A stretch of 64,000 nucleotides of DNA from Callorhinchus milii (lineage: Eukaryota): NCBI RefSeq assembly GCF_018977255.1, contig NW_024704766.1:4960001-5024000 (forward strand), in the 5' to 3' direction. A program made the translations under genes and the position numbers. Position 1 is the first letter of the stretch. Each line of letters starts with the position of its first letter. The notes beneath the pieces are model-generated. The model saw only the letters and a list, made by a program, of their open reading frames with translations, had not been told where the DNA came from and ran no database searches. Positions 1,244 through 36,231 of the stretch are shown piece after piece.

Positions 1244-1462
1244 CTGATAAGCAATAGCTCTACAAGCATCACACTTGAGATGGTCGGGCATGTGGTTAGA
1301 ATGAGCCTCCTCGTTATTCAGGTCGGGAGATTTCATCTCAATCGTTCCTGATGTTGCATATGGAAAGTGATCGCTTTCTTTCCTCTTCCTATCCCTGTGA
1401 TTGCCTCTGCCAGCAACCTCATACATACACATCACCAGCACGGCGGCAACAAGAAGCTTCAT
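1244..1462 (-). CDS. MZB1: MZB1-like (marginal zone B and B1 cell-specific protein / pERp1), first coding exon; remaining exons apparently beyond the window start
   Basis: ATG at 1462 gives signal peptide MKLLVAAVLVMC, then SPDLNNEEAHSNHMPDHLKCDACRAIAYQ, which matches MZB1 APQLDDEEMYSAHMPAHLRCDACRAVAYQ including the CxxC. Donor CAG|GTAGGT at 1243. Ortholog versus paralog is unresolved. Confidence 0.88.
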
Positions 1463-1596
1463 GGTTTCATCAATTATTGGCAATACTATACATTCAAACG
1501 GGGCTATTGAACAGTGTGAACCGCAGGCTGGCAGGAAACCAAGTGCTGATGTGTACTGTATGTGGCCCACGGTGTCTTCAGTTCATGTGCGCTGGA

Positions 1597-1613
1597 CCAA
1601 TGAGGAATCGAAA
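1597..1613 (+). promoter_or_regulatory. CCAAT box plus Ets-IRF composite element (GGAAnnGAAA) upstream of the MZB1-like ATG
   Basis: GGAATCGAAA at 1604-1613, immediately after CCAAT, about 140 bp upstream of the ATG. Motif match only. Confidence 0.4.
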
Positions 1614-2276
1614 AGCAGCAGCTTTAAGAAACTTTTTTTTTTAAAAAAAGTGAGCAAGAGATTGGGAGGGGAGAGAAAAATAATCTTTAAACAATCACTA
1701 TTTAGCAGGTTCTAAATCCTAACTCAAGTTTGGTAATTTTAGCTTAAAACTACACAAAACACGTCTGGCTCTCTGTTAAATGATTATACATTCTCGAGGG
1801 AACATCTGGCTCGACTCCCTTTGTTAATTACATTCCTATTTCTTCCCCCTTTTACAGCCTCGTCTATTTGCAGAATAACTTGAGCCGAGGAAAGGGCTAG
1901 CTTGCTCCCAACAAGACAGCAAAGCTGATTGGAATCAGCCAGGGAGAAGCTGTTCAAAAGGTGATGCTCACTAATTAATTTTCCGCCAACTTCATGTTTT
2001 TCACAGTTCTTTATAATGAAATGACTGTGAATAGAAAGCGCTGTGGGTTCAACTTGGGGGAATAATAATAATCCTTGCATTTGATATAACGTCTTCAAAA
2101 CGTCTCAAAGCGCTTCACAGAATACACTGTGAATTGACTGCATATTTTGTGAGCAAAACGTGGCAGCCAATTGCGCACAAACAGTCGTGGATTGAGCGAC
2201 ATTTTTTTTAGGGATTATTACTCCTGGTAAAAGCGATCCGCCACTCAACTAACAACTGGATTCCTACTTACTGCTA

Positions 2277-3650
2277 ACATAACATAACATGTAGGAGCAG
2301 GAGTAGGCCATTCGGCCCTTCGAGCCTGCCCCGCCATTCAATCATGGCTGATCTACTAATCTAACTCCAGCTAATAACCTGACCCTGCCTTATCCCCATA
2401 TCCCTTAATCCCTTTTGCAATAAGAAATCTATCTCTCTCAGTCTTGAATATGTTCAAGGACTGAGCGTCAACAGCCCTTTGGGGTAGCGAGTTCCATACA
2501 TTCACTGCCCTTTGAGTGAAGAAGTTCTTCCTCAACTCAGTGCGAAAGGGCTGCCTCTGATTTTAAGGTTGTGACCCCTGGTTTTAGTTTCTCCAACCGG
2601 GGGAAACAATCTCCCACTATCTACTCTATCATGCCCTTTGATGATCTTATAGGTTTCTATAAGATCCCCTCTAATTCTTCTATATTCTAGAGAATATAGG
2701 CCCAAATTGGTCAGCCTATCCTCGTAACTCATCCCCTTCATCCCTGGTACTAACCCAGTAAATCTACGCTGCACCCCCTCCAAGGCAAGTACATCCTTCC
2801 TTAAATAAGGAGACCAAAACTGCACACAGTATTCCAGGTGTGGTCTCACCAGGGCCCTATACAGTTGCAGCAAGACTTCCCTACTCTTATACTCTAATCC
2901 TTTCATAATGAATGCTAACATACCGTTCGCCTTCCTAATTGCTGCTGCACCTGCAGACTAACTTTCTGTGATTGGTGTCCAAGGACACCCGAGTCCCTCT
3001 GGACACTAACACATTCCAATCTCTCCCCTTCTAAAAAATAACCCACTCTTTTGCTCCCGAGGTGGATGACTTCGCACTTCCCTTTATTATACTTCATCTG
3101 CCACCCACCTGCCCAACCACCTATGTCTCGCTGCATTTTTTTAATGTCGTCCTCTGTGTTGACACTTCCTCCTAGTTTTGTGTCATCCACGAATTTAGAT
3201 ATATTAACTGCGATGTCCTCATCTAGATCGTTGATGTAGATGGTAAATAGCTGAGGCCCAAGGACTGATCCTTGTGGCACTCCACTAGTCACATCCCGCC
3301 AATCTGAAAAGGACCCGTTTATCCCTACTCTTTGTTTCCTACCCGTTAACCATTCCCCAATCCACGTTAATATGCTCCCCCGAATTCCATGGGCCCTTAT
3401 CTTTTGGATTAACCTTTTATGCGGCACCTTATCGAATACCTTCTGGAAGTCCAAACAGACCACATCCACTGATTCTCCCTTATCCAGTTTACTGGAAATA
3501 TCCTCAAAAAACTCTATGAGATTTGTCAAACATGACATCCCTTTTGTAAAGCCACGTTGACTTGGCTTAATTATATTGTGCCCTAAACACCGCACTACCA
3601 CATCCTTAAAGAATGATTCCAAAATGTTTCCTATCACTGATGTGGATAAA
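2277..3650 (-). mobile_element. CR1 LINE, 5'-truncated, reverse-transcriptase region with a frameshift, nested in a SINE (2062-2276 and 3652-3775)
   Basis: ORFs 2915..3718 (LDFQKVFDKVPH, GVPQGSVLGP, KFVDDTKL) and 2532..2921 (RPHLEYCVQFWSP) are typical CR1 ORF2. Confidence 0.93.
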
Positions 3651-3802
3651 CTGGGTAAACATGAGTGTGTGCGGAGTAAGGGAACCTGCCCAATGTTTCG
3701 TTCCTGCCCGGGAATCAACTACAGGTCCTCTCGCTTGCGAGGCGAGTGTTCTCACCACTGAGCTACAGGACTCCACAGCATCAGGGCAAACATACTCTCA
3801 GA

Positions 3803-4200
3803 ACAACAACAAATTGACATTTATAGAGCGCCTTTCACGTCAGGAGGACGTCAGGGGTCGGGACCCGAGCATGGAGGAGGGATGGGGGTGAGGGTGAGGA
3901 AAGGGGGAGAGGTGGGAGGGCGACCGAATGCACGATCGAAGAGAAAGGTCTTGAGATCAGTCTTGGAGTTCCAGAGTGTGGGGCAGAGAGGCTGAAAGCC
4001 CGGCCACCGATGGTAGGGTGGGTCGGGCGGGTGACATGGAGCAGGTGGAGCCCGCTGACCGGAGGGAGTGGGCGGGTTGGTAGGGAGTCAGCAGGTCAGA
4101 GAGGGAGGAGGGGGCAAAGCCGTGGAGGGCCTCGAAAGTGAGGACGAGGATCTTGAACCCGATCCTCTGGGGGATGGGGAGCCGGTGGAGTCGGGCGAGG
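3803..4200 (-). mobile_element. L2 LINE 3' fragment
   Basis: Reverse complement of the L2 3' end at 21050-21630; (TTG)n tail. Confidence 0.75.
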
Positions 4201-4559
4201 GCGGGGGCGACGGGGTCGGCCGGGGCGGGGGTGAGGGGGTCGGGCGAGGGCGACGGGGTCGGGCGAGGGTGACGGGGTGAGGGGTCGGGCGGGGGCGACG
4301 GGGTCGGGCGAGGGTGAGGGGGTCGGGTGAGGGCGGGGGTGAGGGGGTCGGGTGAGGGTGAGGGGGTCGGGCGAGGGCGGGGGTGAGGGGGTCGGGCGAG
4401 GGCGAGGGCGGGGTGTCAGGTGGGGGTGACGGGGTCGGGGGTCTGAGGCGGTGTCCGGGTTCCTGACCGGCTCAGTGAGGCTGAGTGTGTGTGTGTGGGG
4501 GGTGGTGGGGGGGGGACAGGCTGGAGGGGCTGAATGGCCTCCCCTCCTGTTCCTGACCT

Positions 4560-4870
4560 CACACTTACTCCCCGGGGCAGCACTTCGCTGCTGCTGCTCT
4601 CGCCGCTGACGTCATTTGGCTTCCGGCCCAAACCCGCCCCTCGGCCCGTTGGCGCCGCAGACCGACTCCTCCCATTGGCTAACCCGGCCGTCCGTCACTC
4701 GGCTCGACCAATCACCCGAGGGGGGGAAGGGCCCTGACGGGGCGGGCCGGCGGGCCATCCCGGCCTCTGATTGGTTCGCGGCCGCGCACGGACGAAGAGC
4801 GCACCAATCGGGGACGGGCGCCTGTGACCCGCCGCGCGCGACGCGGGGCTGAATGTCCCGCCTTCTTAGG
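4560..4870 (-). promoter_or_regulatory. CpG-island promoter with a probable non-coding first exon ending at 4569
   Basis: CpG-rich. Four CCAAT boxes (4674, 4708, 4770, 4804), GC box 4633-4640, ETS CTTCCGG 4620-4626, CRE TGACGTCA 4607-4614, minus-strand donor GGA|GTAAGT at 4568. Confidence 0.7.
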
Positions 4871-5262
4871 CAGAGGGGGGGGGGAAGGGGCAATGGGGTC
4901 AGGGGGTCAATGGGGGGCAGAGGGGTCGGGGCAATGGGGGCCAATGGGGAGGCAGAGGGGAGGGGCAATGGGGTCAGGGGTCAATGGGGGGCAATGGGGG
5001 GGCAGAGGGGAGGGGTAATGGGGTCAATGGGGGGTCAATGGGGGAGGCAGAGGGGAAGGGCAATGGGGTAAGGGGTCAACGGGGGGCAATGGGGGGTAGA
5101 AGGGGGGGGGCAATGGGGTCAGGGGTCAATGGGGGGCAGAGGGGGAGGGCAATGGGGTCAGGGGGTCAATGGGGGGGCAGAGGGGAAGGGGCAATGGGGG
5201 AGAGGGGAGGGGCAATGATGGGACAGAGGGGGGGGCAGTGGGGGGCAATGGGGTGGGGAGAG
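4870..5262 (+). repeat. Degenerate G-rich minisatellite (GGGGCAATGGGGTCA-like units)
   Basis: Repeated GGCAATGGGG, GGGGTCAATG and GGCAGAGGG blocks. Confidence 0.8.
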
Positions 5263-5609
5263 GATAATAATAATAATCCCGGCATTTGTCGCAGCCCCTT
5301 ATCAGGTCTTCGAGCCGTCTCAAAGCGCTTTCCAGAGTACACTGTAAAGCGTAGTGACTGTGTGTTTCGCGGGGGGGGGGGGGGGAGTGCGGCAGCCGAT
5401 CGCGCCCGGCGGTCGCGGAATCGAAGCGAAGTTATTTCTAAACAAATCACTCTCTTAAGGGGATTATCAGCCCCCCCCGGGGGGCATCGAACCCGGGTCC
5501 TCTTGCGAGCGGGAGGCAAGGGCTCCAACCGCTGAGCGACACGACCACCCCCACCCCCCCCAACCCCCCCGCCTCGGGCAAGCGGCGGAACTAACTCGAT
5601 TAACTCATA

Positions 5610-6002
5610 GCCCCAACCGCCCGACCATCGGTGGCCTTCAGCCTCTCAGCCCCGAGGCTCTGGAAGTCCATCCCCAGTGCCTTCGCCGCTTCCTCCCTTT
5701 CCTCCTTCAAGGCCGGTCTCAAGACCTTTCTCTTTGACCTTCAGCCTTCAGCTCCCCTCTCGACTCTCTACCCCCTCCTCGTCCCTCCCTCCCTTCCCTC
5801 ACCCTGACCATTTCCCCCTCCTTGCTCCCCCCCTCCCCCTCACCCTGACCATTTCCCCCTCCTCGCTCCCTCCATCCCTCCCCTCACCCTGACCATTTCC
5901 CCCCTGCTCGGGTCATGACCCAACTGTGCAGCGCCTTGGGACGTCCTCCCGACGTGAAAGGCGCTTTATAAATGGAATCTTGTTGTTGTTGTTGTTGTTG
6001 TT
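5610..6002 (+). mobile_element. L2 LINE 3' fragment
   Basis: Near-identical to 21285-21630, including the GGGACGTCCTCCCGACGTGAAAGGCGC tail and (TTG)n. Confidence 0.85.
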
Positions 6003-6764
6003 AACGCCCTCCGGTTAAACGGACCCGGTGAGCGTCCGCCGCGCCGGGATGACGGGACTCGTGGATTTTTTTACCCGGGCGGAAAGTTGACCTTATTTTT
6101 TTCGCCCACCTTTCAAGTGATCGGGGACTGCAAAGCATTCACAGCATCTGTGCAAACCCACACGTCTGGTATGCGTCTGGATCAGAGAGGTAGTAAATCA
6201 CCATCGTGTCGGATGACAAACTTCCTTTTTCCTTTCCCTTGAAATCGTCGCAGCCGATCGAAAGGGGATGAGACCACATTTTTCGAAGAAACCCAGCGAA
6301 TTCTCACCAGAGGGGGAATGCGATACGCGCATGATTAATACTGCTGGTCTGAGCCGACGAGGCCTGGCAAACACTGATCAATCGGGTGAGGCCAACTCAC
6401 AAGGCTTTGCAAAGAAAGTGAGCGGAGGGAAAGAAAAGTCATAGCTCACGGAAAATAGTCATCAGCTGGCGGTGAGCAGAGACCGTCGGGCTCGGTTAGG
6501 ACCAGCAAACTGTTGCGACTGACTGCAAAACTGCAGACGCAGTGATCCACCCTTATTTTTCTTAGGACGCATTCAATGGGTGCAATGGGTTGCGTTTCGT
6601 CGCCCTGAACAGGTCACAGTCGGCTGGAATGGCTTGTGCTAAGCCCTCTGGAGGCGCTACCCTGGGTGAGGGGTGTCGTAAGAAGGAAAGAGGGCAGTAG
6701 TTTGGCCGGTAGCACGCACCATCATCTGCGCAGTTAGTGGCGAGGAATGGATGTTGGAAACCCA

Positions 6765-6945
6765 CTTCTCTTTCGATAGTGTCATGGGATCTTTAAAATC
6801 CACTTGAAGAAAGGGAGACGGACCCTCTATTTAACGTTTTATTTAAGAGATTACATGGCATGTCCGACAATTATCGCGCGGGAGTGTAGCCTAGACTGTC
6901 AGCTCCGTTCTTGACCCCGAAGAGAGTGCTAACGACTGAGGCAAG
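6765..6945 (-). mobile_element. Old Deu-domain SINE fragment
   Basis: Degenerate match to the Deu core as recalled (GTCGGAGGTGCC...GAGACGTTAAACCG...AAAGATCCCATGGCACTATT). Confidence 0.55.
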
Positions 6946-7899
6946 AGGGTTATTTTGCACTGTCAGCCTTGCTACCTTACACACCGACGGGAAGGTGAAC
7001 TGCCGGAATCAGAGCTGCAAACAGAAAATGCTGCAATTGCACAGAAAGTGAACTAGCGATCGAAAGTTATACTATCGTTAGCTTGTTCTAAGTGCAAATA
7101 GAACAATTACCGATCAGTCCCATCCACCGCAAACGGCAGTCCGCCAAGTGGATAGAAGTGTAGAACACAAATGTTTTGAGAAATCGTAACGGGTTCTGAT
7201 ACTGAGCCTTTTTTATTTTGACGTTAAAGAAATGTGACAAAGCCGGGAAACGGCATCAGAGGCCGTAACAGTGGAGTGCAGGAAAGGGTCTGCGGAAAAG
7301 AAGAGCGAAGATCATCCATTCCCCTCATGATAATGTAGCATATTTGGGCCGACTGACCTTTAACACCATCACAGACAGGACCTGCAAAGCTTGAGTTACC
7401 CGAACTTGTGTCTGACAGTACGCAGTAAAGCTGGTGACCTTTACTAATTATAGCCCGTGCTGCCCTTGCTGGCATTCGTTCAACCATCGCTTGGCACACT
7501 CCAATGAGTTGTTCCATCTCCCACAGTAAAGCCACTGGGATCTGCGCTGCCGATAGATTGTATTACAAGTCCTTTGCCAGCAATTCTATGAATTGAGCTG
7601 GCAACACAATGTGCAGAATGATTCACTGTAGTCTTAGCGCTGTACTTGGAACTGCCCCACACAATTTTCGGTTAATGAAAACACTCTTTTTTTAATACAA
7701 CTCCAAATACTAACATATTTCAGTGGCTTCAAGGAGATGGAAGTCGCATACCTAAGGGCAAAAAGTGATTGCAGTCTCGGTATCCTGAGATTGATCAGGA
7801 TAATAACCTAACGTGAAAGGCTGAGTAAATTGGGATTGTTATATTATATATAACCCCCAACTAAATGGTGACAAGATGGAAGCCATACTCATTTGCTCC

Positions 7900-8270
7900 C
7901 GTCAACTTCTTCTATTCAGCGGCTCTGACTTCCTCAACCTTCCCCGGCCTATCCCTCAGACTTAATAAACCAGTGCGAAACCTAGGCATCAAGTTCGACC
8001 CCCAGCTGTCCTTCCTTCCCCACATCCAGTCCCTCACCAGGACCACCTTCCTCCACCTCAGCCACATTGCCCACCTCCGACCGTGTACCCCACCCCAGAC
8101 GCAGCCCAAAACACTCCATGCGTTCGACACCTCCCGACTCGACTTCTCAAATGCCCTCTTGAGCGGTCTCCCCAGTTCCACCAGGCACAGGATCCAACTG
8201 ATCCCAAACTCCACAACCCGCATAACTCACCGTTACTAAACTCCGTGCCCCCCATCGCACCAGTTCTAGC
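7900..8270 (+). mobile_element. L2 LINE internal fragment
   Basis: ORF 7865..8239: VRNLGIKFDPQLSFLPHI...HAFDTSRLDFSNALLSGLP, typical of L2 ORF2 downstream of RT. Confidence 0.85.
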
Positions 8271-10801: not shown

Positions 10802-13800
10802 TCAAATGGCTGTAGGTTTGCACTCTTTGACTTCAAGGCAAGACTTGGCTCGCATGGCTACTTGCGGCAGGGTAGGATTAGGACATAGGGTCATACCTGT
10901 TGGGATGTAATACAAGCTTTCCATATATTCAGTCTCAGCAGATATGCTCCTATGGATGTGATGTTGCTTATCTGCCTGATTAGTGTGCAGGCCACTTTGT
11001 TGGGACGGCATATCTGGAGGCCTTTGAGAGGACACCTGCGGGTTTACAAGCAACCCGGGGTATGGCACATTTGGCAAATACGATGGCGCCACGACACTCG
11101 GATTAAGAAGATAGGGAGAGAATGGCATTTGGTACAAACCGCCAAACGTGGGCTGAGCCTGAGGCATTACAACTTCAACATACTGACCAGTTTCTGGATC
11201 CAGAAGCATTTTCCTTGAAGGCTGGACAGGAGCATCAACAAAGTAGTACTTTCCCGTCTCTGGGTCAACCAGGATCTTCCTCTCTGTTTGAGGATACTGG
11301 TAGCTTGGCACTGGGGCCTTGTCGATATCTTGAGCACTCTGGGGTACCTCGCAAAATGTTTCAGGAAAGTTCAATGTCCTTGCCTCCGGAAAGAAAGGAA
11401 GCATTTGGGGCTGCGATGGATTGGGGACCTGAGAGAGACTGTATGGATTCCATAGAGATGTACCGGGAGACTGCGATTCCTGGGAGACTTGCTGAGAAAG
11501 CGTTTTCTCTTGCCTGTGAGGATTTGGAATCTCCCAACTCTGTTGGCGCTGAAAATATGGGATGGCCAATGGAGTAGGCTGACTTGACTTAAAACCAGTG
11601 GAATACGGAGAGGTAGGTGTTTGTACCTGAGCAGGCACAGGCGGCTTCTGTTCCTTAATAGGAATGGCGAGATAGTTTACAGTTTCAGAGCAGGTTTTGT
11701 GTTCTTTTGGGACTGTTCAGTTGACAGCTGCACTTTAACCTTTGAGGAATTAGATTCCCCTTGATCCTGACTGTCAGAGATAGACAACCTGTTAGTAGAC
11801 TTAACAGGAAGAACTGATGTCACATTTAACTCTGTAAAAGTCGAATGGCTTTGTGACGCTTTAGCTGCGGACTTTGAGATATTCGTTACAGGTGTGGATG
11901 TGTCAGAAATATCATGTCTCTCAGATGGATGAGCAGATGTCTTCAAAGAGCCTTTCACTGCCTGGTAGCCTTCTGAAGATCTTGCCGGGACCTTGCCTCT
12001 TTGTCTTCTGTCCTAACTAAAGGCGAAGGCTGTGGAATAGGATCATTTGGGATCTGGTACTGTACAGATGAAAGTTGTTTATTTCTAATTTTGCTGTCAC
12101 TAGGCTCCGAGCTATTCTTATCTGCCTTCATCCTTTCTTCTTCCAAAATCAGTGACAATACGTAGCTATCTTTAACTAGCTGTGATTCCCGCAATAACCC
12201 TGGCTTCAGCCCTGGCTTCTCTGAAGCCTGCACCTGTTCAGCTTTCCCCTTTTTCACTTGCTTCTCCAATTCAGTTGACAACTCGTTCTTGGTCTCCCTT
12301 TTGCCGAGCGACTGAACGTCATGATTCTGGACACAATAATCTCGGGAATTAAGCCAATTTTCGGGACCATCTTCGTTCCGATCACCGCTCTTAGTTTTGC
12401 CAGTCAGCAGGTCGTCTTTGGTGTATGCAGTTGGATTTTCTTCGGTCTCCGTTCTAGGCTCATTCTTTTTGGTCGACAGTTTGAGATCGTCATTCTTTGA
12501 CGGTGAAATCTTGAAGCGTTTAGTTTGACCTTCTGATCGATCTCGCACATCTCTATTACGCTCGCTGTTTCCATGTATCACATTGGCTTCTGTGTTTGAA
12601 GTTGTATTTCCAAGTTGGTTGTGCAGTTTGACTTGTCCTTCTGTTTGACGAGAAACTTTATTGGGTGAGATATTACTATCTTCCTTGGCTGCATTGAATT
12701 TGGAAGGAATTTGACTTTCTCTGTCAGTCTTCACTTTATCCTTAGGATGCACGGAAACATTTTGTTTCTGCTTATTTCTTTCAGAGGACAAATTGGTGCT
12801 TTCATTATTCAAACAAATCTTACCAGTCAGGTGTTTGTTCAAATTTTCTCCTCCAACCTGGGCTTCTGTTTTCGATCCAGCCTTCATTGCCGATGCTTTG
12901 ACATCTTCATTCTTCACTGTAGATGAGGTTTGCACCTTGTCATCTTTTGCCTGCTCTTTTTTAGACGTTTTCATATCAGTAAAATGGATTAAATCTTCAG
13001 TTCCTTCTTTCTCAATCACTGTTTTCCTGGAGGAACCAACCTTGTTCTTCATGATGTCTGTTGGAATTAAGAACTTGATGTCTGAAGAATACATCCTTGA
13101 GGTGTCTGTACTCCCTGCATACGTCCAGTACTTTTTATCAACTGACAGATGATTGTCTCTGATGCCTTTGTGATTTATTGACTGGTATTTGATAAAAATG
13201 GGCAAAGGCAGAGTGTTTAGCGATGAAGTGCGATCAGGTGTGGCATCTTCTGAATCTTCAGGATTAAAAACTTGTTCAGATCCGTACAGTTTTACGTCAG
13301 TGAATGTCAAAGCCCCGTAGGTATTTTTGACCAATTTACGCACATCTCGCACATGATGTATAGGCCCTTTTCCTTTCTGTTTTAAATATCTGTTGTCTTT
13401 TATCTCGAACTGGGGCTCTTTCACCTTGCAATCACCAGTCTCATATTTAAAGGATGCTGGCAGTGTGTGATATTTAGGGTCTAGGGGAATTACTTTACTG
13501 CTGGAGCTAATGTTTGGGGACAACAGCTCTATGCTTCCAAAGAGCTCATTCAACTTCTCCATTGGCATTTGCAAAGCTTTCGTTTTTTCTGGTGACCTAG
13601 AAATACGTCTTGGCTGATTCTTCAACTCGGAAGTGCTACCTGACCACTTGTAACTAATCTTGTCTTCATAAGCTGTCAGCTTGCTTTGCTTTGACTGACT
13701 GACTTGCGAGATCTCCTTGGGAAGATGTGGGATGCCATCTACATCACTGTCTACTACAACTTGTTCATTGGCCTTTTTCTCATCAGCTCGCACACTGTCT

Positions 13801-15194
13801 AAGCCATGTAACATCAAGTAAGATTGCTCTCCACATAGCCCCATCCCTCTCCCTGATTTAATTCCCTTTATGCTGTCTGTGTTGCTTTCCTTCCAGTTTC
13901 TAAACGCGCTGTTTTCCCCACGATTAAAGATATCTCTGCTGGGCTGCCCATCTAAACCAAGACCCCCCTCGCACCATATAGACCCCCAGCTGTTCTGTCG
14001 CAAAACACTTCTCTTTTCATGCGTCGCCTCACCGAGATCATAACTTTTCCTTCTGAAACTCCTGGAAAGTTCCTCCTCGGACATATCGCTCTCGGATTTG
14101 GAATTGGAGTTTTGGCGTCTCAGTTCCTGGGGAAACTCAAACTCCTTCAAGTTTACAGAGGAGGGGGTTGAGGGAACAGAAGGGAGGTTGTCCTGAATTA
14201 CTCCACGTTCCATTTTAAGCTCTTGCTCGAAGAGCATCTTCTTCGAGATGACGTTAGATATGTGACACGAGGCAAATTTGGCCTTTTTTGAGCATTCTTC
14301 CATTGACTCCGCTCTCTTCAGTTGCCTGTTGACTTCTTCCTTCGTTTCCACGCTCACCTTCGTCTCCTTTTTGTAAGGAGCGGTTTCGGGCTTTTCTGGA
14401 AAGTTTGGAGCTTCCTCCGTTTTATGCATCTCGCTTCCAAGCTCAGTCGCGGCCCGGCAATCGGTGGCATCCTTCGACGTAAAGATTTTAAGTTCGCTTC
14501 GCTGGCGTTTCTTCAGTTGGATCTCTCTCTTTGGTACGGTCCTACTTTCACCTCGTACTTTGCTCTCCTCTCGAGTCTCCACAGCCACATCAACGCACTC
14601 AAACTGGGCTCTGCCATAACTCTCTTCCGAATCCGCATTGCCGCTTTCCTCACTTCTGGTGCTTAAAGTGCAGACGGCGCTGCTATTAGACTTTGTGTTG
14701 TCCTCGCCTGGGAAACCCAAGTCAACATACGTAGATGACCTTTTAATGCTGTTGCTGTCCTCTGAGCGCGACAGAGACAAATCGCTGGAGGTCCTGGTGC
14801 TATAGACATCGATGTAGCTATTGTGAGGACAGGCCAGGCTACGGAAGGCTAGAGCAGTGAGCTTCCGAACCTCGTAATCAGTTTCATCCAACCCACTCAC
14901 CACACTAGAGGTCTCACTCATATAATCAGCATAAGCACTTTTAACACTTACAACTGGATCTCTCCTGAAACAGTCGTCCAGATTTTTCTTGTCAATCTGA
15001 AACATTTCTCGCTTCGGTGGATTGAGAGAGGGTGGCGTGTCGATTCCCTGCTCGTCTGAGCTTCTGCTGTCTGGTTGTGAGCAGTGAGCCTCTCCTGTAT
15101 CTATCCCGGCTATTCTGGGAAGCAAGTGACAGCTGAACCTGTTGGCTTCTATACCCTTTGCAGTTGTTGCTGTCTTGTGCATCCTCCCCCACAT
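10802..15194 (-). CDS. C4orf54/PROB1-family DUF4585 protein, single long exon, interrupted in this assembly by two 1-nt frameshifts (about 11955-12012 and 11680-11716)
   Basis: The 1081-aa ORF carries C4orf54-type motifs KFAS..SNVISKKM.FEQELKMERG and PIHHVRDVRKLVKNTY. The third frame carries NYLAIPIK and the DUF4585 signature RKILVDPETGKYYFVDAPVQPSRKMLLDPETGQYVEV. First in-frame ATG is at 15194. Confidence 0.85.
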
Positions 15195-15497
15195 CCCCAA
15201 TGGATCATGTTTAATGGCTTTGCTGACTGTTCCTACATTTTACGTGGTTGCATTTTCTGTTAGGAAAGTCTCAGTGTTGAAGAATGCCCTGGTGTTGTAA
15301 AAATCTTTATCCTTCCAAAGCTTAAGATGCATTGGCCAAGTGAGCAAACTTTAAATCATTCTTGGCTTTCTTCTATTCAGGGTTGAATATTAACTGCCAG
15401 CTCACAGCTTGATTGTTTAGCTGCTCCTGTCAGTCACGGCAGTGAAACTATTTCAGTAGTTTTGCCCACACTGACGGGCTATTGGACTTTATTGGAA

Positions 15498-15908
15498 AGG
15501 CAGACCAGTCACTGGGAGCAGGGAGTCATCTCAAGCAGCTCCTATAAACCCTGCAAGCCAAAGCCCTAACGGGTAGAGTGGTCCCAGTTAGATAAGCAGC
15601 GGGAAAGCTTGCCAGACAGCGATATCAATGGCAAGCTATGAGGTTTTCGCTGGTTAGACTCCAGCAGTTACCCCAACGCACGCTCTGGGCTCCCCCAAAG
15701 CCTTGGCTCTTGCCAACTTGGGCCTAATAGCTTCCGGAATTAGGTTAAGAAGCGAGAGAGAGAGAGAGAGAGAGAGAGCGCATACCATTCCAACATTCTA
15801 TCTCTGGGATTTCCATGTGTAGGTTGGATGCCTGGAAATCTCAGCTTAGTTTGGAGACTCTTAAGCCCAGTGATGGGTTTCCGCATGTGTCAGACACCCG
15901 GCTGGGCA
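15498..15908 (-). repeat. Unclassified dispersed repeat, copy A
   Basis: Reverse complement aligns by eye with 26550-26800 (+) and 55350-55760 (+). Confidence 0.75.
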
Positions 15909-22199: not shown

Positions 22200-23260
22200 G
22201 GCCCATCGAGTCTGTGTGGCTCTTTGACAGAGCGTCACTTTCACTAACCCCACTCACCAGCTTTCTCCCCATAACCCTGCAAACCTGTCTTCTCCAGATA
22301 CCTATCCAGTTCTCTCTTAAAAGCTGTTATTGAATCGGACTTCACTGCCCTTTTGGGCAGATCATTCCAAACTTGAACAGCTCGCTGAATGAAAAAATTT
22401 CTTCTAACCTCCCCTCTGCTTCTTTTGGTAGATATCCCAAGACTGTGACCACGAGTCACAGACGCACCTACCAGCGGAAACAGCTTTTCCCTATCTCGCC
22501 TGTCGAAACCTTTCATGATCTTGAAGACCTCTATCAGGTCCCCACGTAACCTTCTCTGCTCTAATGGGAAAAGTCCTAACTTCTCCAGCCTGTCCTCATA
22601 GCTAAGGTTCCCCATTCCTGGTATCATTCTCGTGAATCTCCTCTGCACCCTTTCCAGTGCCTTAATATCCTTCCTGAGGTAAGGTGCCCAGAACTGGACG
22701 CAGTACTCCAGCTGAGGCCTAACCAGTGTTTTGTACAGATTAAGCATAACCTCTTACTCTTATACTCTACTAATGAAGCTCAGTACACCAAATGCCCTTT
22801 TTACTGCCCTATCTACCTGCTCTGCCGCCTTCAATGAATCGCTTACTTGAACGCCCAGATCTCTCTGTACGTTCACCCCCCTTAAGATTGAGCTCCCAAG
22901 CCTATATTGCCTCCTATCATTTTTCCTACCTAAGTGTATCACCTCACACTTATCCACATTGAAATCCATCTGCCACATGTCAGCCCATTCCACCATTCTG
23001 TGTATGTCTGCCTGCAGTTGGTTACAGTCCTCCTCACTATTTACTACCCGACCTAACTTGGTATCATCTGCAAACTTGGAAATAGTGCTCTCTATGCCCA
23101 AGTCCAGATCATTAATATATATTAGAAAGAGCAGTGGTCCCAATACCGATCCCTGGGGGACACCGCTGCACACCTCCTTCCATTGCGAGTAACACCCATT
23201 AACCACCACCCCCTGCGTTCTGTCACTCAGTCAGTTCCTAATCCAAACGACTACTGTTTC
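22200..23260 (-). mobile_element. CR1 LINE, 5'-truncated, nested in a plus-strand SINE head (22170-22200 and 23260-23565)
   Basis: ORFs 22760..23209 (GVPQGSVLGP, KFADDTKL) and 22244..22747 (RPQLEYCVQFWAP). Confidence 0.93.
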
Positions 23261-25223: not shown

Positions 25224-25232
25224 ATGAACGGG
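25224..25232 (+). CDS. Candidate first coding micro-exon of TMPRSS13 (MNG)
   Basis: ATG AAC GGG|GTGAGT is a phase-0 donor that joins the phase-0 exon at 28670 (N-V-Y), similar to human MERDSHG|N. Chosen on phase and donor quality only. Confidence 0.35.
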
Positions 25233-26549: not shown

Positions 26550-26800
26550 TTGGTCAGCCGGGTGCCTGACTCACCACTCAGAAATTGTGCTTAAAGAGTC
26601 TCCAAACCAATTTCCGGTTTGTTGCAGAGCGTGCGTTGGGGTAACTGCTGGAGTCCAACCAGCTAAACCCGTATAGCTTGCCATTGATAACGCTGTCTGG
26701 GAAAGCTTTCCCGCTGCTTGTCCAGCTGGGATTATGCTGTCTGTTAGGGCTATGGCTGAAGGAGCCAAGTGGCAGGATTCCTTGTCCCCAGTGACTGGGG
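26550..26800 (+). repeat. Unclassified dispersed repeat, copy B
   Basis: Shares CAGAGCGTGCGTTGGGGTAACTGCTGGAGTC...AGCTTGCCATTGATA...AAGCTTTCCCGCTGCTT with copy A. Confidence 0.75.
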
Positions 26801-27224
26801 AGAGTGACGCATTGGAAATGAATGTAACTTCAACATCCTTTGCATTGGGATTCCTGTTCGCCGAGTGTTTCTAAAAGCACCACATCATCGACAGTTTCTA
26901 TGATTGCACAAAAAAAAGTAACAGACAGATCTCACCATGGATGTGGGGCAAACTTATAATAATAATAATAATAATCCTTGCATTTGATATAGCGCCTTAT
27001 CGCGTCTTCGAGACGCCTCAAAGGACTTCACAGGATATACTGTAAAGTGAATTGACTGTATATTTTGTGTATATATAGTATATATAACTATTTATATATA
27101 TATATTTATTTCCCAATGCTGGTTTGTCCAGCATGACAAAGCAATCATGACGAACATTGGTTAACACCCACATCAGGATCTGAGCTCACAGTCTTGGCTG
27201 GCGCAGTGCCATTTTGAGAGAACT

Positions 27225-27425
27225 CTGCATTATCGGAGGTGCCATCCTTCAGATAAGACGTTAAGCCGAATTCCTACCGTATTTATAGTAAAGGTCCCGA
27301 CACTATTGGAAAAGAGAAGGAATTTTTCCCTGTTGTCCTGGTCACCAATCCCTCCGATAACACTTGTATTCCTCTCTCCGCTGTTCGAAGGAACTTGCCA
27401 CCTGCAAAACGGCTGCTGGATTTGC
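27225..27425 (+). mobile_element. Old Deu-domain SINE fragment
   Basis: TCGGAGGTGCCATCCTTCAGATAAGACGTTAAGCCG...CACTATTGGAAAAGAG...TGTCCTGG resembles the Deu core; similar pieces near 48232, 53730, 54780 and 62010. Confidence 0.6.
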
Positions 27426-27431
27426 CTACAA

Positions 27432-27759
27432 AATAATAATAATAATAATAATCCTTGCATTTGATATAGCGCTTTTCACGTCGGGAGGAACGTCCCAAAG
27501 CGCTTCACAGAACACACTGTAAAGTGAATTGACTGTATATTTGTGGGCGAACGCGGCAGCCAATTGCGCACAGCAATGTCCCACAAACAGTCGTAGATTG
27601 AAAATGACCAATTTATTATTGTTTTCGGTTTTGGAGGGATTATTATTAGGCTCTGTGTGGAGTGAGGAAACTCGCCCAAGGTTTCGCCCTCTGCCGGGAA
27701 TTGAACTCAGGTGTCTCGCTTGCAAAGCAAGTGCTCTAACCACTGAGCTACAGGACTCC
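27432..27759 (-). mobile_element. tRNA-derived SINE, young subfamily
   Basis: Near-identical to 19585-19906. Confidence 0.9.
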
Positions 27760-28669
27760 ACGTATTTTACAAATACTGCGCGTTGTCAAAAGCATTTGTA
27801 AAATATTGAATTGTAAAGTGTTTTGAGTCGATTTGACTAGACCTGGCCTGATGGCACAGCGCCCTCCTATGGTTCAGAACGACTTTCTGCTTCACGATTT
27901 CCTCTCAAGAAACGTGATGACATTAATGTTTTGCCCATTGCTCTGCTCTGCACTGACCCAAAGACGTTATACGAGGACCAGAGTTTGTGCATTGGCCCAA
28001 CCAAGTAATAGCAAAATCTTCGAGGAGGGCAGTAACCCAGCTTTCCAGCCAGGGCCCAACTTTGCTCTGGGGTTAAAAAAAAAGCAATTTGATATCATAA
28101 CTGAAATGACTCACCGAGATTTCAGCAATGATCCAAGGATGAAGTAAGTCTTCCCGTCAAGGTCTTGGAGCTCATAGACTGAGCATCACACAAACAACAG
28201 TTTAGTTCTATGGTTTCCACAGAGAAACTATGTCCTCTCGTGGGTGGGGCGATTCCAGAACAAGGGGAGCTTCATCCTAAAATTAAAGCCAGGCCATTTA
28301 GGAGTTAAGTCAGGAGGCAGTTTTTCACCCAAAAGTGAGTGAAATCTGTAACTCTTTCCTTCCCAGAAAAAGGCTGTGGATTATGGCCGAATCCATTCAC
28401 ATTTTCAAGACTGAGGTGGATAGGTGTTTTGTTAGGTCAGGGCATCAATTGATACGGGGCAACTGGAGATGAGGTATAGATCAGCTATGATCTAATAGAA
28501 TGGCTCAAGGGGCTGAATGGCCTCCTCCTGTTCCTAAATTGTACGTTTCATTCATCACTTCCACAGTAACAAGTGCTTTGAATATTTGTTGGGGGTGGGG
28601 TTGGGGCGGGCAGAGGCAGTTCAAAACAATTTTCTAAAAGAATGATTCCCAATCTGTGTTGTGTTGCAG

Positions 28670-31600
28670 AATGTTTATCCTCAAACGGATTTCAGAGAGA
28701 ATCCACCGCCATACTCCGCTGTGCAGCCTGGCGATCTACCATCTTACACCAGCATTCAGAACCCACCGCCCCCTTACACAAGTTCACCACCACGTTCCCA
28801 TTATCCAACTGCACCCCCGACGTCTGGGAACCCACCTGGGGAATATCAGCCCTATTACATACCTGTGTCTGTCCCAGTTACGTCTTCGACAGCAGTGACC
28901 CATGCTGCAGGTTGGTTTATAGTCTGTGTTTGTGTGTGTGTAGCTGTCTACTGCGGTAAAGGATTGACGTGCGGGAGTGGGGGGGGGGGGGGGGGGGGTT
29001 GTGGGGATGGGTGTTAAAAAAAAAGAGATATTAGAGGTATATTGAGTCCTGTAGCTCAGTGGTTAGACCACTGACCTCGCAAGCGAGAGACCTGGGTTCA
29101 ATTCCCGAGTAGGGCGAAAGGTTTACCCAGCAGTAAGCAGGAACCCGGTTGTTAGTCGATTAGCGAACCGGGTAGGGGGGAATAAAATAAAACAAAATAA
29201 TAATAACTTGGTCACTCGATCCACAACTGTTTGTGGGACACCGCTGTGTACAATTGGATACGGCCCTGAATCAAATGTGAGGAATTATTCTTGTGATAAT
29301 AGATGCTTTGAATGAGAGCTAAAGGTTATTTCTTATCTGTGGATGTTTAACATGACCCATGTCTTCTCCTCAGTCAGACCCTGCAAGCATTTCTCCTGCT
29401 CACGAAAGAGGAGGTGTATGGGATGGGGCAGCTCTACGAGCCTGGTCTTCGGTCTGGTAGCCGTTGGCATTTGGCTTATATGTAAGTAATGCTTTGACAG
29501 TGACCTGGGATCTCAGCACCCTGGTACTCTGGTTCCTTTTAATCCTTGCTTCCTTCCTTGCATTTGACGCAGCGCATTATCACGTCTTCGAGACGTCTCA
29601 AAGCGCTTCACAGAATATACTGCCAAGTGAATTGACTGTATATTTGTGGGCGAAACGCGGCAGTCGATTGCGCACAGCAGCGTCCTCCACAAACAGCCGT
29701 GGGATTGAAGTGACCAATTTATTATAATTTTTTTTTTCTTGAGGGATTATAATCAGGCGTGTGGAACAAGGAAACTTACCCAAGGTTTTGCCCTGACTGG
29801 AATCGAACCCAGGTCTCTCACTTGCGAGGCGAGTGCTCTAACCACTGAGCTACAGGACTCCAGTTTTAATCTTCAGGAATTACCTCACTTCCTACTTCAC
29901 ACCCTTTTGTTCCACCAAATGCAAATTTCCCAATCGTCTTCCATCTGCGCTGGTCACAGATTGAACNNNNNNNNNNNNNNNNNNNNNNNNNNNNNNNNNN
30001 NNNNNNNNNNNNNNNNNNNNNNNNNNNNNNNNNNNNNNNNNNNNNNNNNNNNNNNNNNNNNNNNNNNNNNNNNNNNNNNNNNNNNNNNNNNNNNNNNNNN
30101 NNNNNNNNNNNNNNNNNNNNNNNNNNNNNNNNNNNNNNNNNNNNNNNNNNNNNNNNNNNNNNNNNNNNNNNNNNNNNNNNNNNNNNNNNNNNNNNNNNNN
30201 NNNNNNNNNNNNNNNNNNNNNNNNNNNNNNNNNNNNNNNNNNNNNNNNNNNGACTGTTCTTGCGCGATTCATTGAATGACGAGTGGGTGACTGATAGATT
30301 GACAGGTGATCGATATGTGCAATAGTTACTCTATTGTACTTTAATAAAAGTAGAGTTTTTAGCAGTTTTGAAAGTGCATAATTCCAAAGACGGGAACGAT
30401 CTCCTTAAAGCTCACAGCTCGATCACATGGACCGTACCCTGAATGAATTTTAAGCACTCTGAGAAGTTACCCTGCCTTCTCTTCAACCGTGCCTTCAGCT
30501 CCCCTCTTGACTCTCTACCCCCTCCTCGCTCCCTCCCTTCCCTCCCCTCACCCTGACTATTTCCCCCCCTCCTCGCTCCCTCCCTTCCCTCCCCTCACCC
30601 TGACCATTTCCCCCCTGCTCGTGTCCTGACCCAACTGTCCAGCGCCTTGGGACGTCCTCCCGACGTGAAAGGCGCTCTATAAATGCAATCATGTTGTTGT
30701 TGTTGCCTGGTGGGCGCTATATAAGCGCAAGTTGTTGGCGTTGCTGAATAGGGAGAGAGGAGAGAGAGAGAGGGTCAGCAGCCAGAGCTGAGGGTGAAAT
30801 TCTCACCGTGCTCCATGTCCAGCAAACCAATGTGCTCTTACCTTCTTCCCACAGACACTTATGTTGACTTCAGCCCAAGTTCCGAGCCACAATGTCCATC
30901 CGAATTCGTTCATTGTGATGGGAAATCCGAATGCTCGGATAGAAGCGATGAATTTGGATGTGGTGAGATTTCTCAACTAATATTTAGTCATCACATTATT
31001 GTCTTGTTTATTATTTGGGGGGGGGTTGTCTCTTTTGCTCCTGTTGGTACTGACTTTACCAGACATATCGTCTGGTATGATTGACAATGACAACAGGAAA
31101 TGACATTTACACGGCGTCTTTCACATCGGGAGGATGTCCAGAGCCAGTCAGGGATTTGGACCCGAGCTGGGGGTTGGGATCAGGAGGGGGTGGAGGGCGG
31201 GGAGGGTGGGAGTAGGAGTGTGACCAAAGGCGCGGGCGAAGAGAGGGTCTTGAGACGTTCCTTGAAGGAGGCCAGGGAGGGAGTGAAGTGAAGGGACTAT
31301 GGGATAGAGTTCGAAAGCGCGTCCACTGATGGTGGTACTGAGGGCCCGAGGTACAATCAGGAGGCCGGTGCCAGTCTTGCGGAGGCCGGGGGTAGTGGGT
31401 TAGGGAGAAAGCAGGTCGGAGAGGTAGGGAGGGGAGGTGCCAGGGCTAGTGGTGGACTAATTGTTCTATTGCTTGGTTCACAGTGCGATTCAAAAAGACT
31501 ACCAACGAGCTAGAGGTGTTCTCGTGGAAAACGAACAGCTGGCTGCCCGTGTGTTACAGCGGCTGGAGCAACGATCTGGCAAGCACAACCTGCCAGCAAT

Positions 31601-34600
31601 TAGGGTTCACTGGGTACATGCTGGGGGGGGAAAGGGGTGAGGGGAGGGGAGAGGGGTGGGGGGGGCAGGGAAATAAACACTGAAGCGCTTTATCGCATCG
31701 TTAAGACATCCCAAATTGGTTCTGATCAGCGAATGACGGGCACTTTTACAACTGGTAAAATCGTACTTGAACGTTACGTAAAGTAACTGATAATAACTTG
31801 ATATAGCACCTTATCAGGTCGTCGAGGCATGAAAGGCGCTGCGTAAGTGGCAATAGTTGTTGTGGTGGTTGTTGTTGTTGTTGTTGACGTCTGAGCCTCT
31901 GAGCGTAATGATGTTGTGTGACATTTTTCAGATATTTCCAATCGAGCAAAATTAGCAGCAACCAAATCTCAACCCTGACGGTCAACTCCACAGCAAAGCC
32001 AGGAAGTAATATCCAAACCATACTAAGCAGTGGGTAAGTTTATGACACCCCTGTGGTGAGTGGGCAGGCGGGTGGGTGTGAGGGAGTCCCACAAACAGTG
32101 ATCTCTCTCTCCTGCAGTAACATCTTCATGTGGACCGGTCCATTCCCTCTGCCTCACCATTCGACAGCCTCCCTGCCCCCACTCTTTGGAACTCCATCTC
32201 ACAAAGTCCCTTCGCCTCGTCCCCTCCCTTGCCTCTTTCAATGCACGTCTCAAGACCCTCCTCTTCAACCTCTTCTTCGGTCACTCTCCCACACCCCCCT
32301 CTCCCCCCCCTCCTCCCTGCCCTCCACCCCCTTCTGATCCCCACACCCAGCTCGGGCCCAATTCCTGACTGTCCAGCACCTTGGGACATTCTTCCGATGT
32401 GAAAGGCGCTGTGTAAATGTCATTTGTTGTTGTTTCCTCCACCAAGTAGAGGCATTTCTGTCTGATGAGGTGCTATAGAAATACAAACTCGTGCTTTCCA
32501 GTCACCGACTGACTGACTGAGCTGTGATGCTCTGTGTTTGTGTTTCAGGGACCAATGTGCCAGCAGAGAGGTTGTTGGACTCAAGTGCATCGGTGAGTTT
32601 CACCCACGTCCCAGCCTGGTCTGGTGTCGGTTATCATGCCTAGTAATAATAATAATAATCCTTGCTTTTGATGTCGCGCCTTATCACGTCTTCGAGACGT
32701 CTCAAAGCCCTCCACAGAATATACTGTGCAGTGAATTGACTGTATATTTTGTGGGCGAGACACGGGAGCCAATTGCGCACAGCAGCGTCCCCACAAACAG
32801 TCATGGATTGAAGTGACCCAACTATTATGTGTGTGTGTGTGTGCGTGTGCGGAGTAAGGAAACTTGCCTAACTTTTCTTGCACTGCCCGGGAATTGAACC
32901 CAGATCTTGTTGCTTGCGAGGTGAGCGCTCTAACCACCGAGTTACAGGACTCTACGAATTCAAAAAGTGGGGGGAAAGGACTTTCCGCTGTGAGGTTGAG
33001 ATATTAACACAAAAAAACCTCTCTCTCTCTCTCTCTCTCCCTCCCTCTCGTTCCCTAGACTGCGGGAAAAGAGTCAATCCATCAGAAAGAATAGTGGGAG
33101 GGACGGCGGCTGAGCTGCAGAAGTGGCCTTGGCAAGTGAGTCTGCACTTTGGCTCCAGCCATGTGTGCGGAGGAACCATCATTGCTCATGACTGGATCCT
33201 CACTGCTGCCCATTGCTTCCTTGGGTAAGTCTGCACCTCTCCATGAGCTGAGATTCCAACTCAAACTACACTGAGAACTGCTGCGTTGAGGGACCATCGG
33301 ATAAGTTCTGGTCTGTAACAAAATACACAGTCACCTCACTTTGAGACGTCTCAACGACGTGATCAGGCGCTACATCAAATGTAAGGGGTTATTATTTTGT
33401 TTTGTGTCACTGGCTGAATCACGTACTAATTCATTAGAAGAAAAACAACAGCATTAATAATAATTTGGTCGCTTCAATCCACGGCTCATCGTGGGGACAC
33501 TGCTGTGGGTGCTTTGGGGTTTGGCCTCAGGTTTGTAACCGTTTTTTTTCTCTCTCCAGCGACACGGCATTGGAACCTTCAAACTGGAAGGTGTACGCTG
33601 GCATTATCTCTCAGAGATTTAAATACAATGGTCAGTTAAGAGATATCAGCCAGATCATCACTCACAAACAGTACAGCAGATCCACCAACGACAATGACAT
33701 GGCTTTGTTAAAGCTGAGTAGACCTCTGACTTTCACAGGTCAGTTCCCCGTGACCAATGTCACCACTATTATCTCTGCCTTGTCTTGGTTTCGCCCACAA
33801 AACGCAGTCAATTCACTTTACAGTACATCCTGTCGTAAGAGCTTTGAGAACACTTCGACGACGCGAAACGGCGCTACATCAAATGCAAGGATTATTATAA
33901 TAGAATGTTTAGGATAATAAGACTTTGCAGCTCAGAGGGTAGTGATATTAGCGATTAATTCAAAACCTCTAGGCTAGTTGAAGCTGAAACAACAGTAAAT
34001 GATATTTACACACTCTTTTCATGTCAGGAGAACGTCCCAAGGCGCTGGACAGTCAGGAATATGGTGTGGACCCGAGCTGGGGGTTGGGATCAGGAGGGGC
34101 AGAGGGGCAGGGAGGGTGGGGGTAGGAGGGTGACCGAAGACGCGGTCGAAGAGGAGGCTCTTGGGATGGGTCTTGAAGGAGGGCAGGGAGGGAGTGAGGT
34201 GTAGGGACTGTGGGATGGACATCCAAAGGGTGAGGGCAGAGAGGCTGAAGGCCTGACCGCCGATACTGGGGCGGGCAGAGTGGATGAACGTGCAGGCCAG
34301 AGCCAGTTGAGTGGAGGGAGCGGACAGGTTGATATGGAAGGATGCAAGGATTATTATTAATACTATTATTATTCCCTGTAGATAGAGTACAGCCTGCCTG
34401 TCTGCCAGCCTATAACCAGCAGTTCCCAGAAAACAGCAGGTGTTGGACAACCGGATTCGGACACCTGCAAGATGGTGCCTGTAAGTAGCTCTGTCTGACG
34501 AATGTATAGCACATCAGAGTCTCACTCCACCCTCTGGAGATCAGAACGTTACACTATGGACAGGGGCCATTCAGGATATCTCCGTGCTGATGTCCCCAAC

Positions 34601-36231
34601 CTCCTCCACCGCCCCGCAGCCCCAACCCCACCCCCACACAGACCTGACCTTAACTCTCGACCCTCTCTGTTTCAGCTTCCATTTCAGAATCGCTCCAGCA
34701 AGTCTCCATTGGGATAATCAGCAGCATTTTATGTAACAGTACAAGAATGTATAATGGAGCCATCACCAAGAGGATGGTGTGCGCAGGCTCGGTAAATGGA
34801 GGTGTGGATTCCTGCCAGGTTAGTGCCACACATGAGACATCGCTCCACACAATCCCATATTCTCCAGGGTATGCCCTCCACCCCTCCTGACCACAACTCG
34901 TAGCTCAGGTCCAAAAACTCCTGATTGTCCAGCACCCTGGGACATCTTTCCAACGCGAAGGCCACCATACAATGTCATTTGTTGTTGTTGTTGTTGTATT
35001 TGCCGGGGAGGAAGGCTTCCATTTGCAAAGAGAGACTTGTGAGAAAGATTGGGCCTTTTTTTTTCCAACAATAAATGACATTTACACGGCGCCTTTCAAG
35101 TCGGGAGGACATCCCAAGGCGCTGAACAGTCAGGGATTTGGATCTGAGCTGTGGGTTGGGATTAGAGAGGGGTGTAGGGCGGGGAGGGAGATTGGAGATA
35201 GGAGGGTGGCCGAAGACATGGCTGGTCGAAGAGGAGGGTCTTGAGATGGGCTTTGAAGAGGGCAAGGAGGGGCGAGGTGAAGGGACTGCGGGATGGTGTT
35301 CCAAAGGGGAGGTGGGGGAAGAGAGGCTGAAGGTCTGACCGTTGATGGTGGGGAGGGCTGGTCGGGGGACATGAAGCAGGTCGGAGCCCACTGAACAGAG
35401 GGAGCGGACAGTATAGTTCACAGGAACACAATAGTTTGCAATGGAGAGTGTGTGTCCTCAGCTTAGCTCGTCTCAGATCATCGTGTGTTTATAAACCTCA
35501 GGGTGACAGTGGAGGGCCATTGGTGTGTGAAGTGTCGGGGACCTGGTACTTGGCAGGTGTTACCAGCTGGGGCATTGGCTGCGGCCAGAAAAATAAACCA
35601 GGGGTTTATGCTCGAGTGACAGAATTCACCAACTGGATCTACACCCAAATGGAGGTAAGAACGGTGTTGGGAGCGGGAGATGGAGGGGAAATTTGCTGCC
35701 ATATCTTCTGGATTTCTAGAAGTTGGGTGTTATGATTTATAATAAAAGTAATAAGGATATTCCTTGCCTTTGATATAGCACCTTATGCTCCCCCATCCCA
35801 AAAAAAACATTTGGTCACTCAACCTACGACTGTTGTGGGACGCAGCTGTGCTTAAATGGCCTCTGCATTTCACACCCAAAATATACAGGCACTACACTTT
35901 ACAGTCTATCCTGCGAAGCGCTTTGAGACGTCTCGAAGACTTGATAAGGCGCTGTATCAAATGTAAGAAATTACTAATATTATCACGTCGTCGCGACGTC
36001 TCAAAGGGCTTCGCAGAATATATTGCAAAGTGGATTTTGCCCGTGGATTTTGTGGGCGAAACGCGGCGTCCAATTGCGCACAGCAGTGTCTCCCACGAAC
36101 AGTCGTGGATTGAGTGACCAAATTTTTGTGGGGGGGAAGCTGGGTGGGGGGGATTTCAATCAAAAGTGCTGTCCGTTGACTTCCCATGCTAAAACCTTGT
36201 CCTTGTTTGTGTTTTATAGGCGAACAGCTAG
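28670..36231 (+). CDS. TMPRSS13: Transmembrane serine protease 13 (type II TTSP: cytoplasmic tail, TM, LDLRA, SRCR, trypsin domain)
   Basis: Phase-consistent exons 28670-28910, 29374-29481, 30855-30962, 31484-31613, 31932-32033, 32549-32592, 33059-33224, 33560-33738, 34382-34480, 34676-34818, 35502-35654, 36220-36231. Activation site R|IVGG, triad TAAHC / DNDMAL / GDSGGP, S1 Asp (DSCQ). Lies directly upstream of FXYD6 as in human. Confidence 0.88.
29555..29861 (-). mobile_element. tRNA-derived SINE
   Basis: Head, body and tail match the family. Confidence 0.85.
29967..30251. other. Assembly gap (285 N) inside a TMPRSS13 intron
   Basis: Run of N; the flanking exons join in phase 1. Confidence 0.99.
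32644..32952 (-). mobile_element. tRNA-derived SINE
   Basis: Family head, body and tail. Confidence 0.85.

Follow-up and report, generated by a model that had tools for sequence, protein, structure and literature searches.

An MZB1–DUF4585 gene pair with 11q23-type neighbours in the elephant shark

In mammals, MZB1 (pERp1/CNPY5) assists, together with GRP94/BiP, the assembly of polymeric IgM and IgA (PMC7956327, PMC3893805), and nurse shark plasma cells are likewise reported to express Mzb1 at a high level (PMC10529500). The family has been placed in ancestral linkage group CLG-Q, with chicken MZB1 on chromosome 13, segment β2, beside DNAJC18, and lamprey MZB1 on copy 2 of the first genome doubling (1R) (PMC10972751). 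We analysed a 64,000-nt stretch of Callorhinchus milii (elephant shark) DNA, hereafter the window, in which MZB1 is accompanied upstream by a co-oriented gene carrying the DUF4585 domain (PF15232). Order and orientation, with the DUF4585 gene upstream, are those of the MZB1–PROB1 tandem of chicken chromosome 13 β2 and of human 5q31. Unlike human MZB1, the elephant shark gene lies on an 11q23-type rather than a 5q31-type segment; its neighbours did not place the locus on a paralogous CLG-Q segment.

A preliminary description of the window had reported this tandem, which proves to be ancient. The same linkage is found in hagfish, where MZB1 (chromosome 3, 116.44–116.52 Mb) is separated by 334 kb from a PF15232 gene at 116.86 Mb, the latter with its highest expression in heart (PMC10972751). 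CLG-Q membership and the hagfish linkage together indicate that the MZB1–DUF4585 pair is ancient and that a 5q-type site, not the window site, is its expected home. We consider it probable that the pair was copied from a 5q-type segment after genome doubling and that MZB1 at the old site was lost in sharks.

The linkage in the window is physical. The only N runs are at 29967–30251 (285 bases, inside a TMPRSS gene) and at the single base 37979, so the stretch from MZB1 through the DUF4585 gene to the first two coding exons found for TMPRSS (at about 28671 and 29376) is free of gaps, as had been claimed. Outside the window, adjacency was judged from equal contig sizes and from blocks of gene identifiers (IDs). 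In the little skate, for which the tables are expression tables without coordinates but with IDs that run in chromosome blocks, Mzb1 (LE04110), C4orf54-2 (LE04033) and Tmprss13-3 (LE04148) occupy a common block, and Mzb1 carries no numeric suffix, the annotation's sign for duplicates (PMC10115646). Among the other named genes seen in the Mzb1 block, 17 of 21 have 11q23–25 names, while Prob1 (LE00639) stands in a different block, in which 7 of the 13 named genes have 5q31–35 names, the remaining six being called after paralogues that lie in other places; the separate PROB1 locus that the preliminary description had envisaged is thereby found among 5q-type genes in these tables. Both counts use the human cytobands of the named genes. 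In Amblyraja, MZB1 and the DUF4585 orthologue are both on a contig of 30,292,166 bases, and in coelacanth MZB1 and the closest DUF4585 protein are on contigs equal in size, the chromosome with MZB1 being of 41.77 Mb.

The preliminary description had further argued from a 4q/5q/Xq/11q paralogon marked by genes such as GRIA1–4. GRIA4 lies at 11q22, in a block other than 11q23.3, and we take chicken 24 to be the 11q23–25 block. The skate copies of groups I and Q are given as 15/34 (chicken 6), 35 (chicken 22), 1 or 3, and 11 (chicken 13), with no entry for chicken 24 (Supplementary Table 3, PMC10115646). In a referee comment, chicken 24 is linked, together with elephant shark scaffold 25, to the unassigned proto-chromosome (PMC8302630). 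With MZB1 in CLG-Q and chicken 24 absent from the tabulated I/Q copies, the paralogon argument loses its footing.

The MZB1 gene and its relatives

The first coding exon of MZB1 (1244..1462, reverse strand) runs from a signal-peptide-like start through the CxxC motif, comprises 73 codons and closes at a GT donor; it is the only coding exon in the window, the remainder lying to the left of base 1. The encoded peptide is 100% identical over all 73 residues to the start of UniRef A0A4W3HIM0 (1 match among 30 candidates), a 204-residue C. milii protein. When compared with the PDB, this protein matched human MZB1 (7AAH, E 1e-42), with the remaining 14 of 15 rows at chance level. A predicted model built on 47 named relatives (predicted local distance difference test, pLDDT, 82) matched 7AAH with E 1.5e-12, a root-mean-square deviation of 2.1 and a template modelling score of 0.88 on the target; 7AAH chains were the only matches at E<0.001 (2 of 201), identifying the pERp1 fold. 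Six cysteines (C64, C67, C108, C154, C182 and C189) are invariant in 47 of 47 MZB1 rows, of which C64 and C67 alone are encoded inside the window. The protein shares with human MZB1 the fold, the CxxC and the other four cysteines, an N-terminal hydrophobic helix (residues 2–14, by inspection) and an acidic C-terminal tetrapeptide, although this last reads KEEF (also by inspection) and no canonical KDEL-type motif is present. By analogy, the window gene most likely encodes the shark's ordinary endoplasmic reticulum (ER)-luminal, saposin-fold co-chaperone, with a role as in mammalian MZB1, which aids the assembly of secretory IgM by plasma cells. Expression of Mzb1 extends to the embryonic skate fin (PMC10115646) and to hagfish liver (PMC10972751).

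A CpG-rich interval at 4563..4870 (reverse strand; CpG observed/expected 1.07, GC 0.72) is the probable promoter of MZB1, with a putative non-coding first exon. It contains four CCAAT boxes in alternating orientation (at least four in 0 of 1000 shuffles, for a region chosen by eye), GC boxes and a cAMP response element that is the window's only TGACGTCA, followed by a GTAAGT donor toward MZB1. No ER stress response element consensus was found near this interval. The probable CpG/CCAAT promoter is a further difference from human MZB1, and it is housekeeping-like, though MZB1 is B-cell-restricted in mammals.

Copy number was assessed by a profile search that returned 91 proteins from 4975 candidates. 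This search is incomplete, because members of a cluster are concealed at 90% identity and the 91 include no MZB1 from human, chicken, frog or teleosts. A separate unindexed search returned 389 proteins at E 0.001, which were mostly left out, with named entries used. Within the 91-protein set, each of the 8 listed elasmobranchs has one MZB1 locus (Hemitrygon with two isoforms), and C. milii is represented by three entries: the window protein, one isoform of it and a copy that is degraded. The second MZB1-type chaperone proposed in the preliminary description is not borne out, as no second intact copy was found in any chondrichthyan among these proteins. The degraded copy (A0A4W3JUB1, P0153) was rejected as a second working MZB1: it has no signal-type start, lacks the second CxxC cysteine and carries large deletions. 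It is identical to the window MZB1 in 52 of 67 aligned columns, compared with 38–44 for seven full-length elasmobranch sequences, and for this reason we read it as a degraded recent duplicate of the chimaera lineage.

MZB1-like proteins were also recovered from lamprey, hagfish, amphioxus, hemichordates, a tunicate, molluscs, annelids and spiders. MZB1 is therefore older than IgM, which removes the bearing on the origin of the IgM secretion machinery that had been ascribed to this locus; the invertebrate relatives had gone unremarked. In a tree of 27 named rows of the 91, with which a 37-row run agreed, jawed vertebrates form one clade (98/97, stem 0.35) that includes chondrichthyans with the window gene (100/99) and amniotes (99/98) around a star-like base that the tree leaves without resolution. 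By the approximately unbiased (AU) test, bony vertebrates as a single clade were not rejected (p-AU 0.19), lampreys with amniotes to the exclusion of sharks were rejected (p-AU 0.010) and sharks with coelacanth were marginally rejected (p-AU 0.042). Neither two deep MZB1 clades nor two copies per genome were seen among the 91 proteins and in the 27-row tree; with one jawed-vertebrate clade and plain orthology not rejected, the gene tree does not bear out the whole-genome-duplication copy that had been inferred from the neighbours. Two entries named ‘-like’, P0241 (Huso) and P0246 (Erpetoichthys), are on chromosomes of 89 and 316 Mb, where the gene neighbourhood may not be of 5q type.

The DUF4585 partner

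Four PF15232 genes are annotated in the little skate: C4orf54-1, C4orf54-2, C10orf71 and Prob1 (supplementary tables, PMC10115646). On sequence comparison we regard the window gene as the fourth member of this family in cartilaginous fishes, not the third as earlier proposed, C10orf71 also carrying PF15232 in the skate annotation. The claim of an additional paralogue, separate from C4orf54, stands. C4orf54 has the PF15232 domain and N-terminal blocks in common with the window gene, but in an unrooted tree (19 rows of 78 matches, 237 columns, named sources only) C4orf54 falls apart from a group that unites the window clade with proteins of coelacanth and salmonids and with the second one of C. 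milii (100/99), and a true C4orf54 from Heterodontus (P0022) lies outside the window lineage. The separate clade argues against orthology of the window gene to C4orf54. A shark-only duplicate of C4orf54 was rejected (p-AU 0.001). The window clade is on the same side of the tree as the coelacanth protein whose contig equals that of MZB1 in size, and the window protein scores 246 bits to this protein, compared with at most 136 bits to C4orf54-clade matches.

The second C. milii family member outside the C4orf54 clade, LOC121850066 (P0018), is on a contig of 19,629,525 bases. It keeps the N-terminal extension, although its record is without the DUF4585 domain, and it could be joined to the window gene, to the shark clade or to the coelacanth protein, none of these three sister placements being rejected; an ESM Atlas search with P0018 returned generic DUF4585 clusters only, below 0.8. 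It could be a damaged PROB1 orthologue. The scaffold is close in size to chicken 13. The salmonid proteins P0080 and P0081, divergent, on the window side of the tree and one of them misnamed, are possibly teleost PROB1-type genes.

The gene lies on the reverse strand in three pieces. The main open frame (11958..15005) starts at a start codon common to elasmobranch orthologues, and the open frame 11958–15194 agrees without a difference with a RefSeq protein of C. milii called ‘C4orf54 homolog’, encoded on a contig of 8,504,660 bases. A middle piece in a shifted frame (11680..12012), omitted from the RefSeq model, is coding in relatives, 10 of 10 tested relatives aligning to it at 22–40% identity. 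The last piece (10805..11716) holds PF15232 (87 bits, cut-off 27; domain at about 11093–11299) and ends at an in-frame TGA (10804–10802), a position that 9 of 9 elasmobranch orthologues fill with Trp before continuing for about 21 more residues. Upstream, an out-of-frame stretch (15064..15252) appears to be the remnant of an N-terminal extension kept in a coelacanth relative (tblastn E 0.003, 33% identity). The frame is broken near 11990 and near 11700, elasmobranch orthologues aligning across three successive frames, and with these two changes and the premature TGA no intact single frame is present in this assembly. None of these lesions figured in the preliminary description.

Pseudogene decay was considered for this gene and rejected, 3 of 86 near-invariant columns being changed, inside the range of 0–7 in other sharks. 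Both frame changes adjoin short A runs, a setting common for sequencing errors, and no such breaks were seen in the elasmobranch records when compared with the C. milii gene. Given the A runs and the lack of extra decay, the lesions would represent either an assembly error or a very recent loss in C. milii.

In a skate fin comparison, the four PF15232 genes shift by −4.3 to −6.3 log2, alongside Myot (−6.2) and Myoz2 (−4.9), whereas Mzb1 shifts by +1.5 (PMC10115646); C10orf71 and C4orf54-2 thus both move with muscle genes in these data. C10orf71 (CEFIP), which like the window gene encodes a long low-complexity protein, is a disordered Z-disc protein, and it is for C10orf71 only that Z-disc location and a role in cardiomyopathy have been shown (PMC11178530). 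By analogy, the window gene probably encodes a muscle-expressed disordered protein. MZB1 and its DUF4585 neighbour look to be linked by history, not function.

Weighing the possible histories

Under the copying that we favour, MZB1 and a DUF4585 gene would have been neighbours before the split of jawed and jawless vertebrates, and after two genome doublings the pair would have persisted as MZB1–PROB1 on a 5q-type segment. A small segment with the pair would then have been copied onto a microchromosome of 11q23 type, unrelated to the first; the likeliest time for this is the stem of the cartilaginous fishes. The new MZB1 would have been kept and the old one lost in sharks, with both DUF4585 copies retained. 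The window MZB1 would accordingly be the single working MZB1 of the shark, and its DUF4585 partner only physically linked. In line with such a history, Prob1 and Mzb1 are in different blocks in the skate tables, and the partner of MZB1 in the window is another DUF4585 gene.

Several points weigh against this account. No named PROB1 or C10orf71 is among the 78 DUF4585 matches, which leaves the tree rootless and a pairing of the window gene with PROB1 no more than a proposal, and both RefSeq and the skate annotation, in the entries available, name the window-type gene after C4orf54, not PROB1. The skate chromosomes are deduced from ID blocks, not coordinates. The lack of a second shark MZB1 comes from the incomplete 91-protein search and is no proof. 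For MZB1, the AU test did not reject a topology that groups all bony fish and tetrapods with cyclostomes and leaves sharks outside (p-AU 0.073), and an ohnologue split between α and β copies would yield the same topology as orthology.

It is possible, if clearly less likely, that the MZB1 genes of sharks and mammals are paralogues from genome duplication, the shark one displaced, with the pair hidden by reciprocal loss. Two slots could have supplied it, and we regard each on its own as doubtful and neither as better than the other. The first is the empty fourth slot, a CLG-Q copy of chicken-22 or human 8p–2p type that would have moved to the 11q23-type chromosome; sharks would have kept that MZB1 and bony vertebrates the 5q one, which is the idea of the preliminary description with its paralogon corrected. 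The four skate DUF4585 genes fit a quartet from two rounds of genome doubling (2R), three being on expected segments and one slot memberless, the hagfish linkage shows the tandem to be older than 2R (PMC10972751), and the AU version with sharks outside (p-AU 0.073) was not rejected. However, this history requires an extra translocation, the skate table giving no I/Q copy for chicken 24, and it would have shark MZB1 split from amniote MZB1 before lamprey, which was rejected at p-AU 0.010 and conflicts with the 98/97 jawed-vertebrate clade; nor is any C10orf71-type protein among the 78 matches.

The second is the α2 slot, from which a 4q-type MZB1 would have been carried along with an early duplicate of C4orf54 predating the split of sharks and bony fishes, making shark MZB1 a hidden 2R paralogue of the mammalian gene. 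The C4orf54 names given by RefSeq and the skate annotation agree with this, and the MZB1 topology is compatible. It calls for a duplication, a relocation and gene losses on both sides, and the window protein is nearer to the MZB1-linked coelacanth protein than to any C4orf54-clade match; the long jawed-vertebrate stem and star-like base of the MZB1 tree would also suit a split close to the jawed-vertebrate crown more readily than the older α/β split.

A simple translocation of the sole MZB1–PROB1 pair, without duplication, is improbable. It agrees with the finding of one MZB1 and with a tree that allows orthology, but in the skate tables a gene with the label Prob1 stands apart, among those of 5q type, and C. 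milii itself has LOC121850066 on a 19.6 Mb scaffold. An assembly misjoin between 15 and 28 kb, in a repeat-rich interval with frameshifts and gaps nearby, is very unlikely, because the skate independently places both genes with Tmprss13 in one 11q23-type block and Amblyraja has both on one contig.

If the copying took place as proposed, shark MZB1, away from its ancestral segment, offers a clean example of copying and reciprocal loss, on a receiving microchromosome of a kind usually described as stable. The window pair supplies no second IgM chaperone; with MZB1 far older than immunoglobulins, antibody secretion would have co-opted it. Should the two MZB1 genes be ohnologues after all, both copies serve plasma cells and recruitment to antibody secretion would predate their split, so that the comparison of shark and mammal could date the co-option; the DUF4585 neighbour would then bring to four the members of a 2R family lost from mammals. 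Gene orthology is corrected in that the fourth DUF4585 gene of cartilaginous fishes carries the database label C4orf54. The skate gene was already annotated as a second C4orf54, and the linkage reading given here is a modest comparative-genomics result. No prior account of a relocated pair was found by title or abstract, in a search outside which most subscription papers fall, and these genes were not found in PMC13450315 (the paper, not its database) or in the supplements of PMC7269912 and PMC8302630 (file 4 excluded).

Neighbouring genes and repeats

The identities that the preliminary description gave to the neighbours held for TMPRSS and FXYD2, which have Pfam and PDB matches, while the FXYD6-, TMEM25- and TTC36-type genes were placed by exon reading with weak domain matches. 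The TMPRSS13-type protease gene (approximately 28671..36231, forward strand, with the assembly gap inside) has transmembrane, LDLa and SRCR-position exons and a trypsin domain, LDLa and trypsin being recognized by Pfam. The top PDB rows of its first protease exon are hepsin, with TMPRSS13 second; the exact name TMPRSS13 follows from its location adjoining FXYD6, as in the human gene order. Downstream on the same strand are an FXYD6-type gene (approximately 44500..48100), of which the exon compared had no PDB match at E 0.01, and an FXYD2-type gene (approximately 50560..53310), for which the best PDB rows are the gamma subunit. A TMEM25-type immunoglobulin (Ig)-domain membrane gene (approximately 56700..59940) and the last two exons of a TTC36-type tetratricopeptide repeat (TPR) gene (63120..63952) follow on the reverse strand, with Ig and TPR Pfam matches only, below or near cut-off.

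Across 28671–63952, FXYD2 is directly adjoined by TMEM25 and TTC36. In human, TMEM25 and TTC36 are several hundred kb from FXYD2; by comparison, the arrangement is a local reordering inside the 11q23-type block.

A dispersed repeat occurs at 15556–15908, 26625–26757 and 55346–55811, its pieces 80–86% identical and in opposite orientations; one copy sits just upstream of the DUF4585 gene, and short tandem units occupy 55.35–55.68 kb. A 16-base tandem repeat spans about 800 bases (45810–46620) within an FXYD6 intron. Intergenic reverse-transcriptase coding fragments of long interspersed nuclear elements are present at 2530–3720 and 22240–23230.

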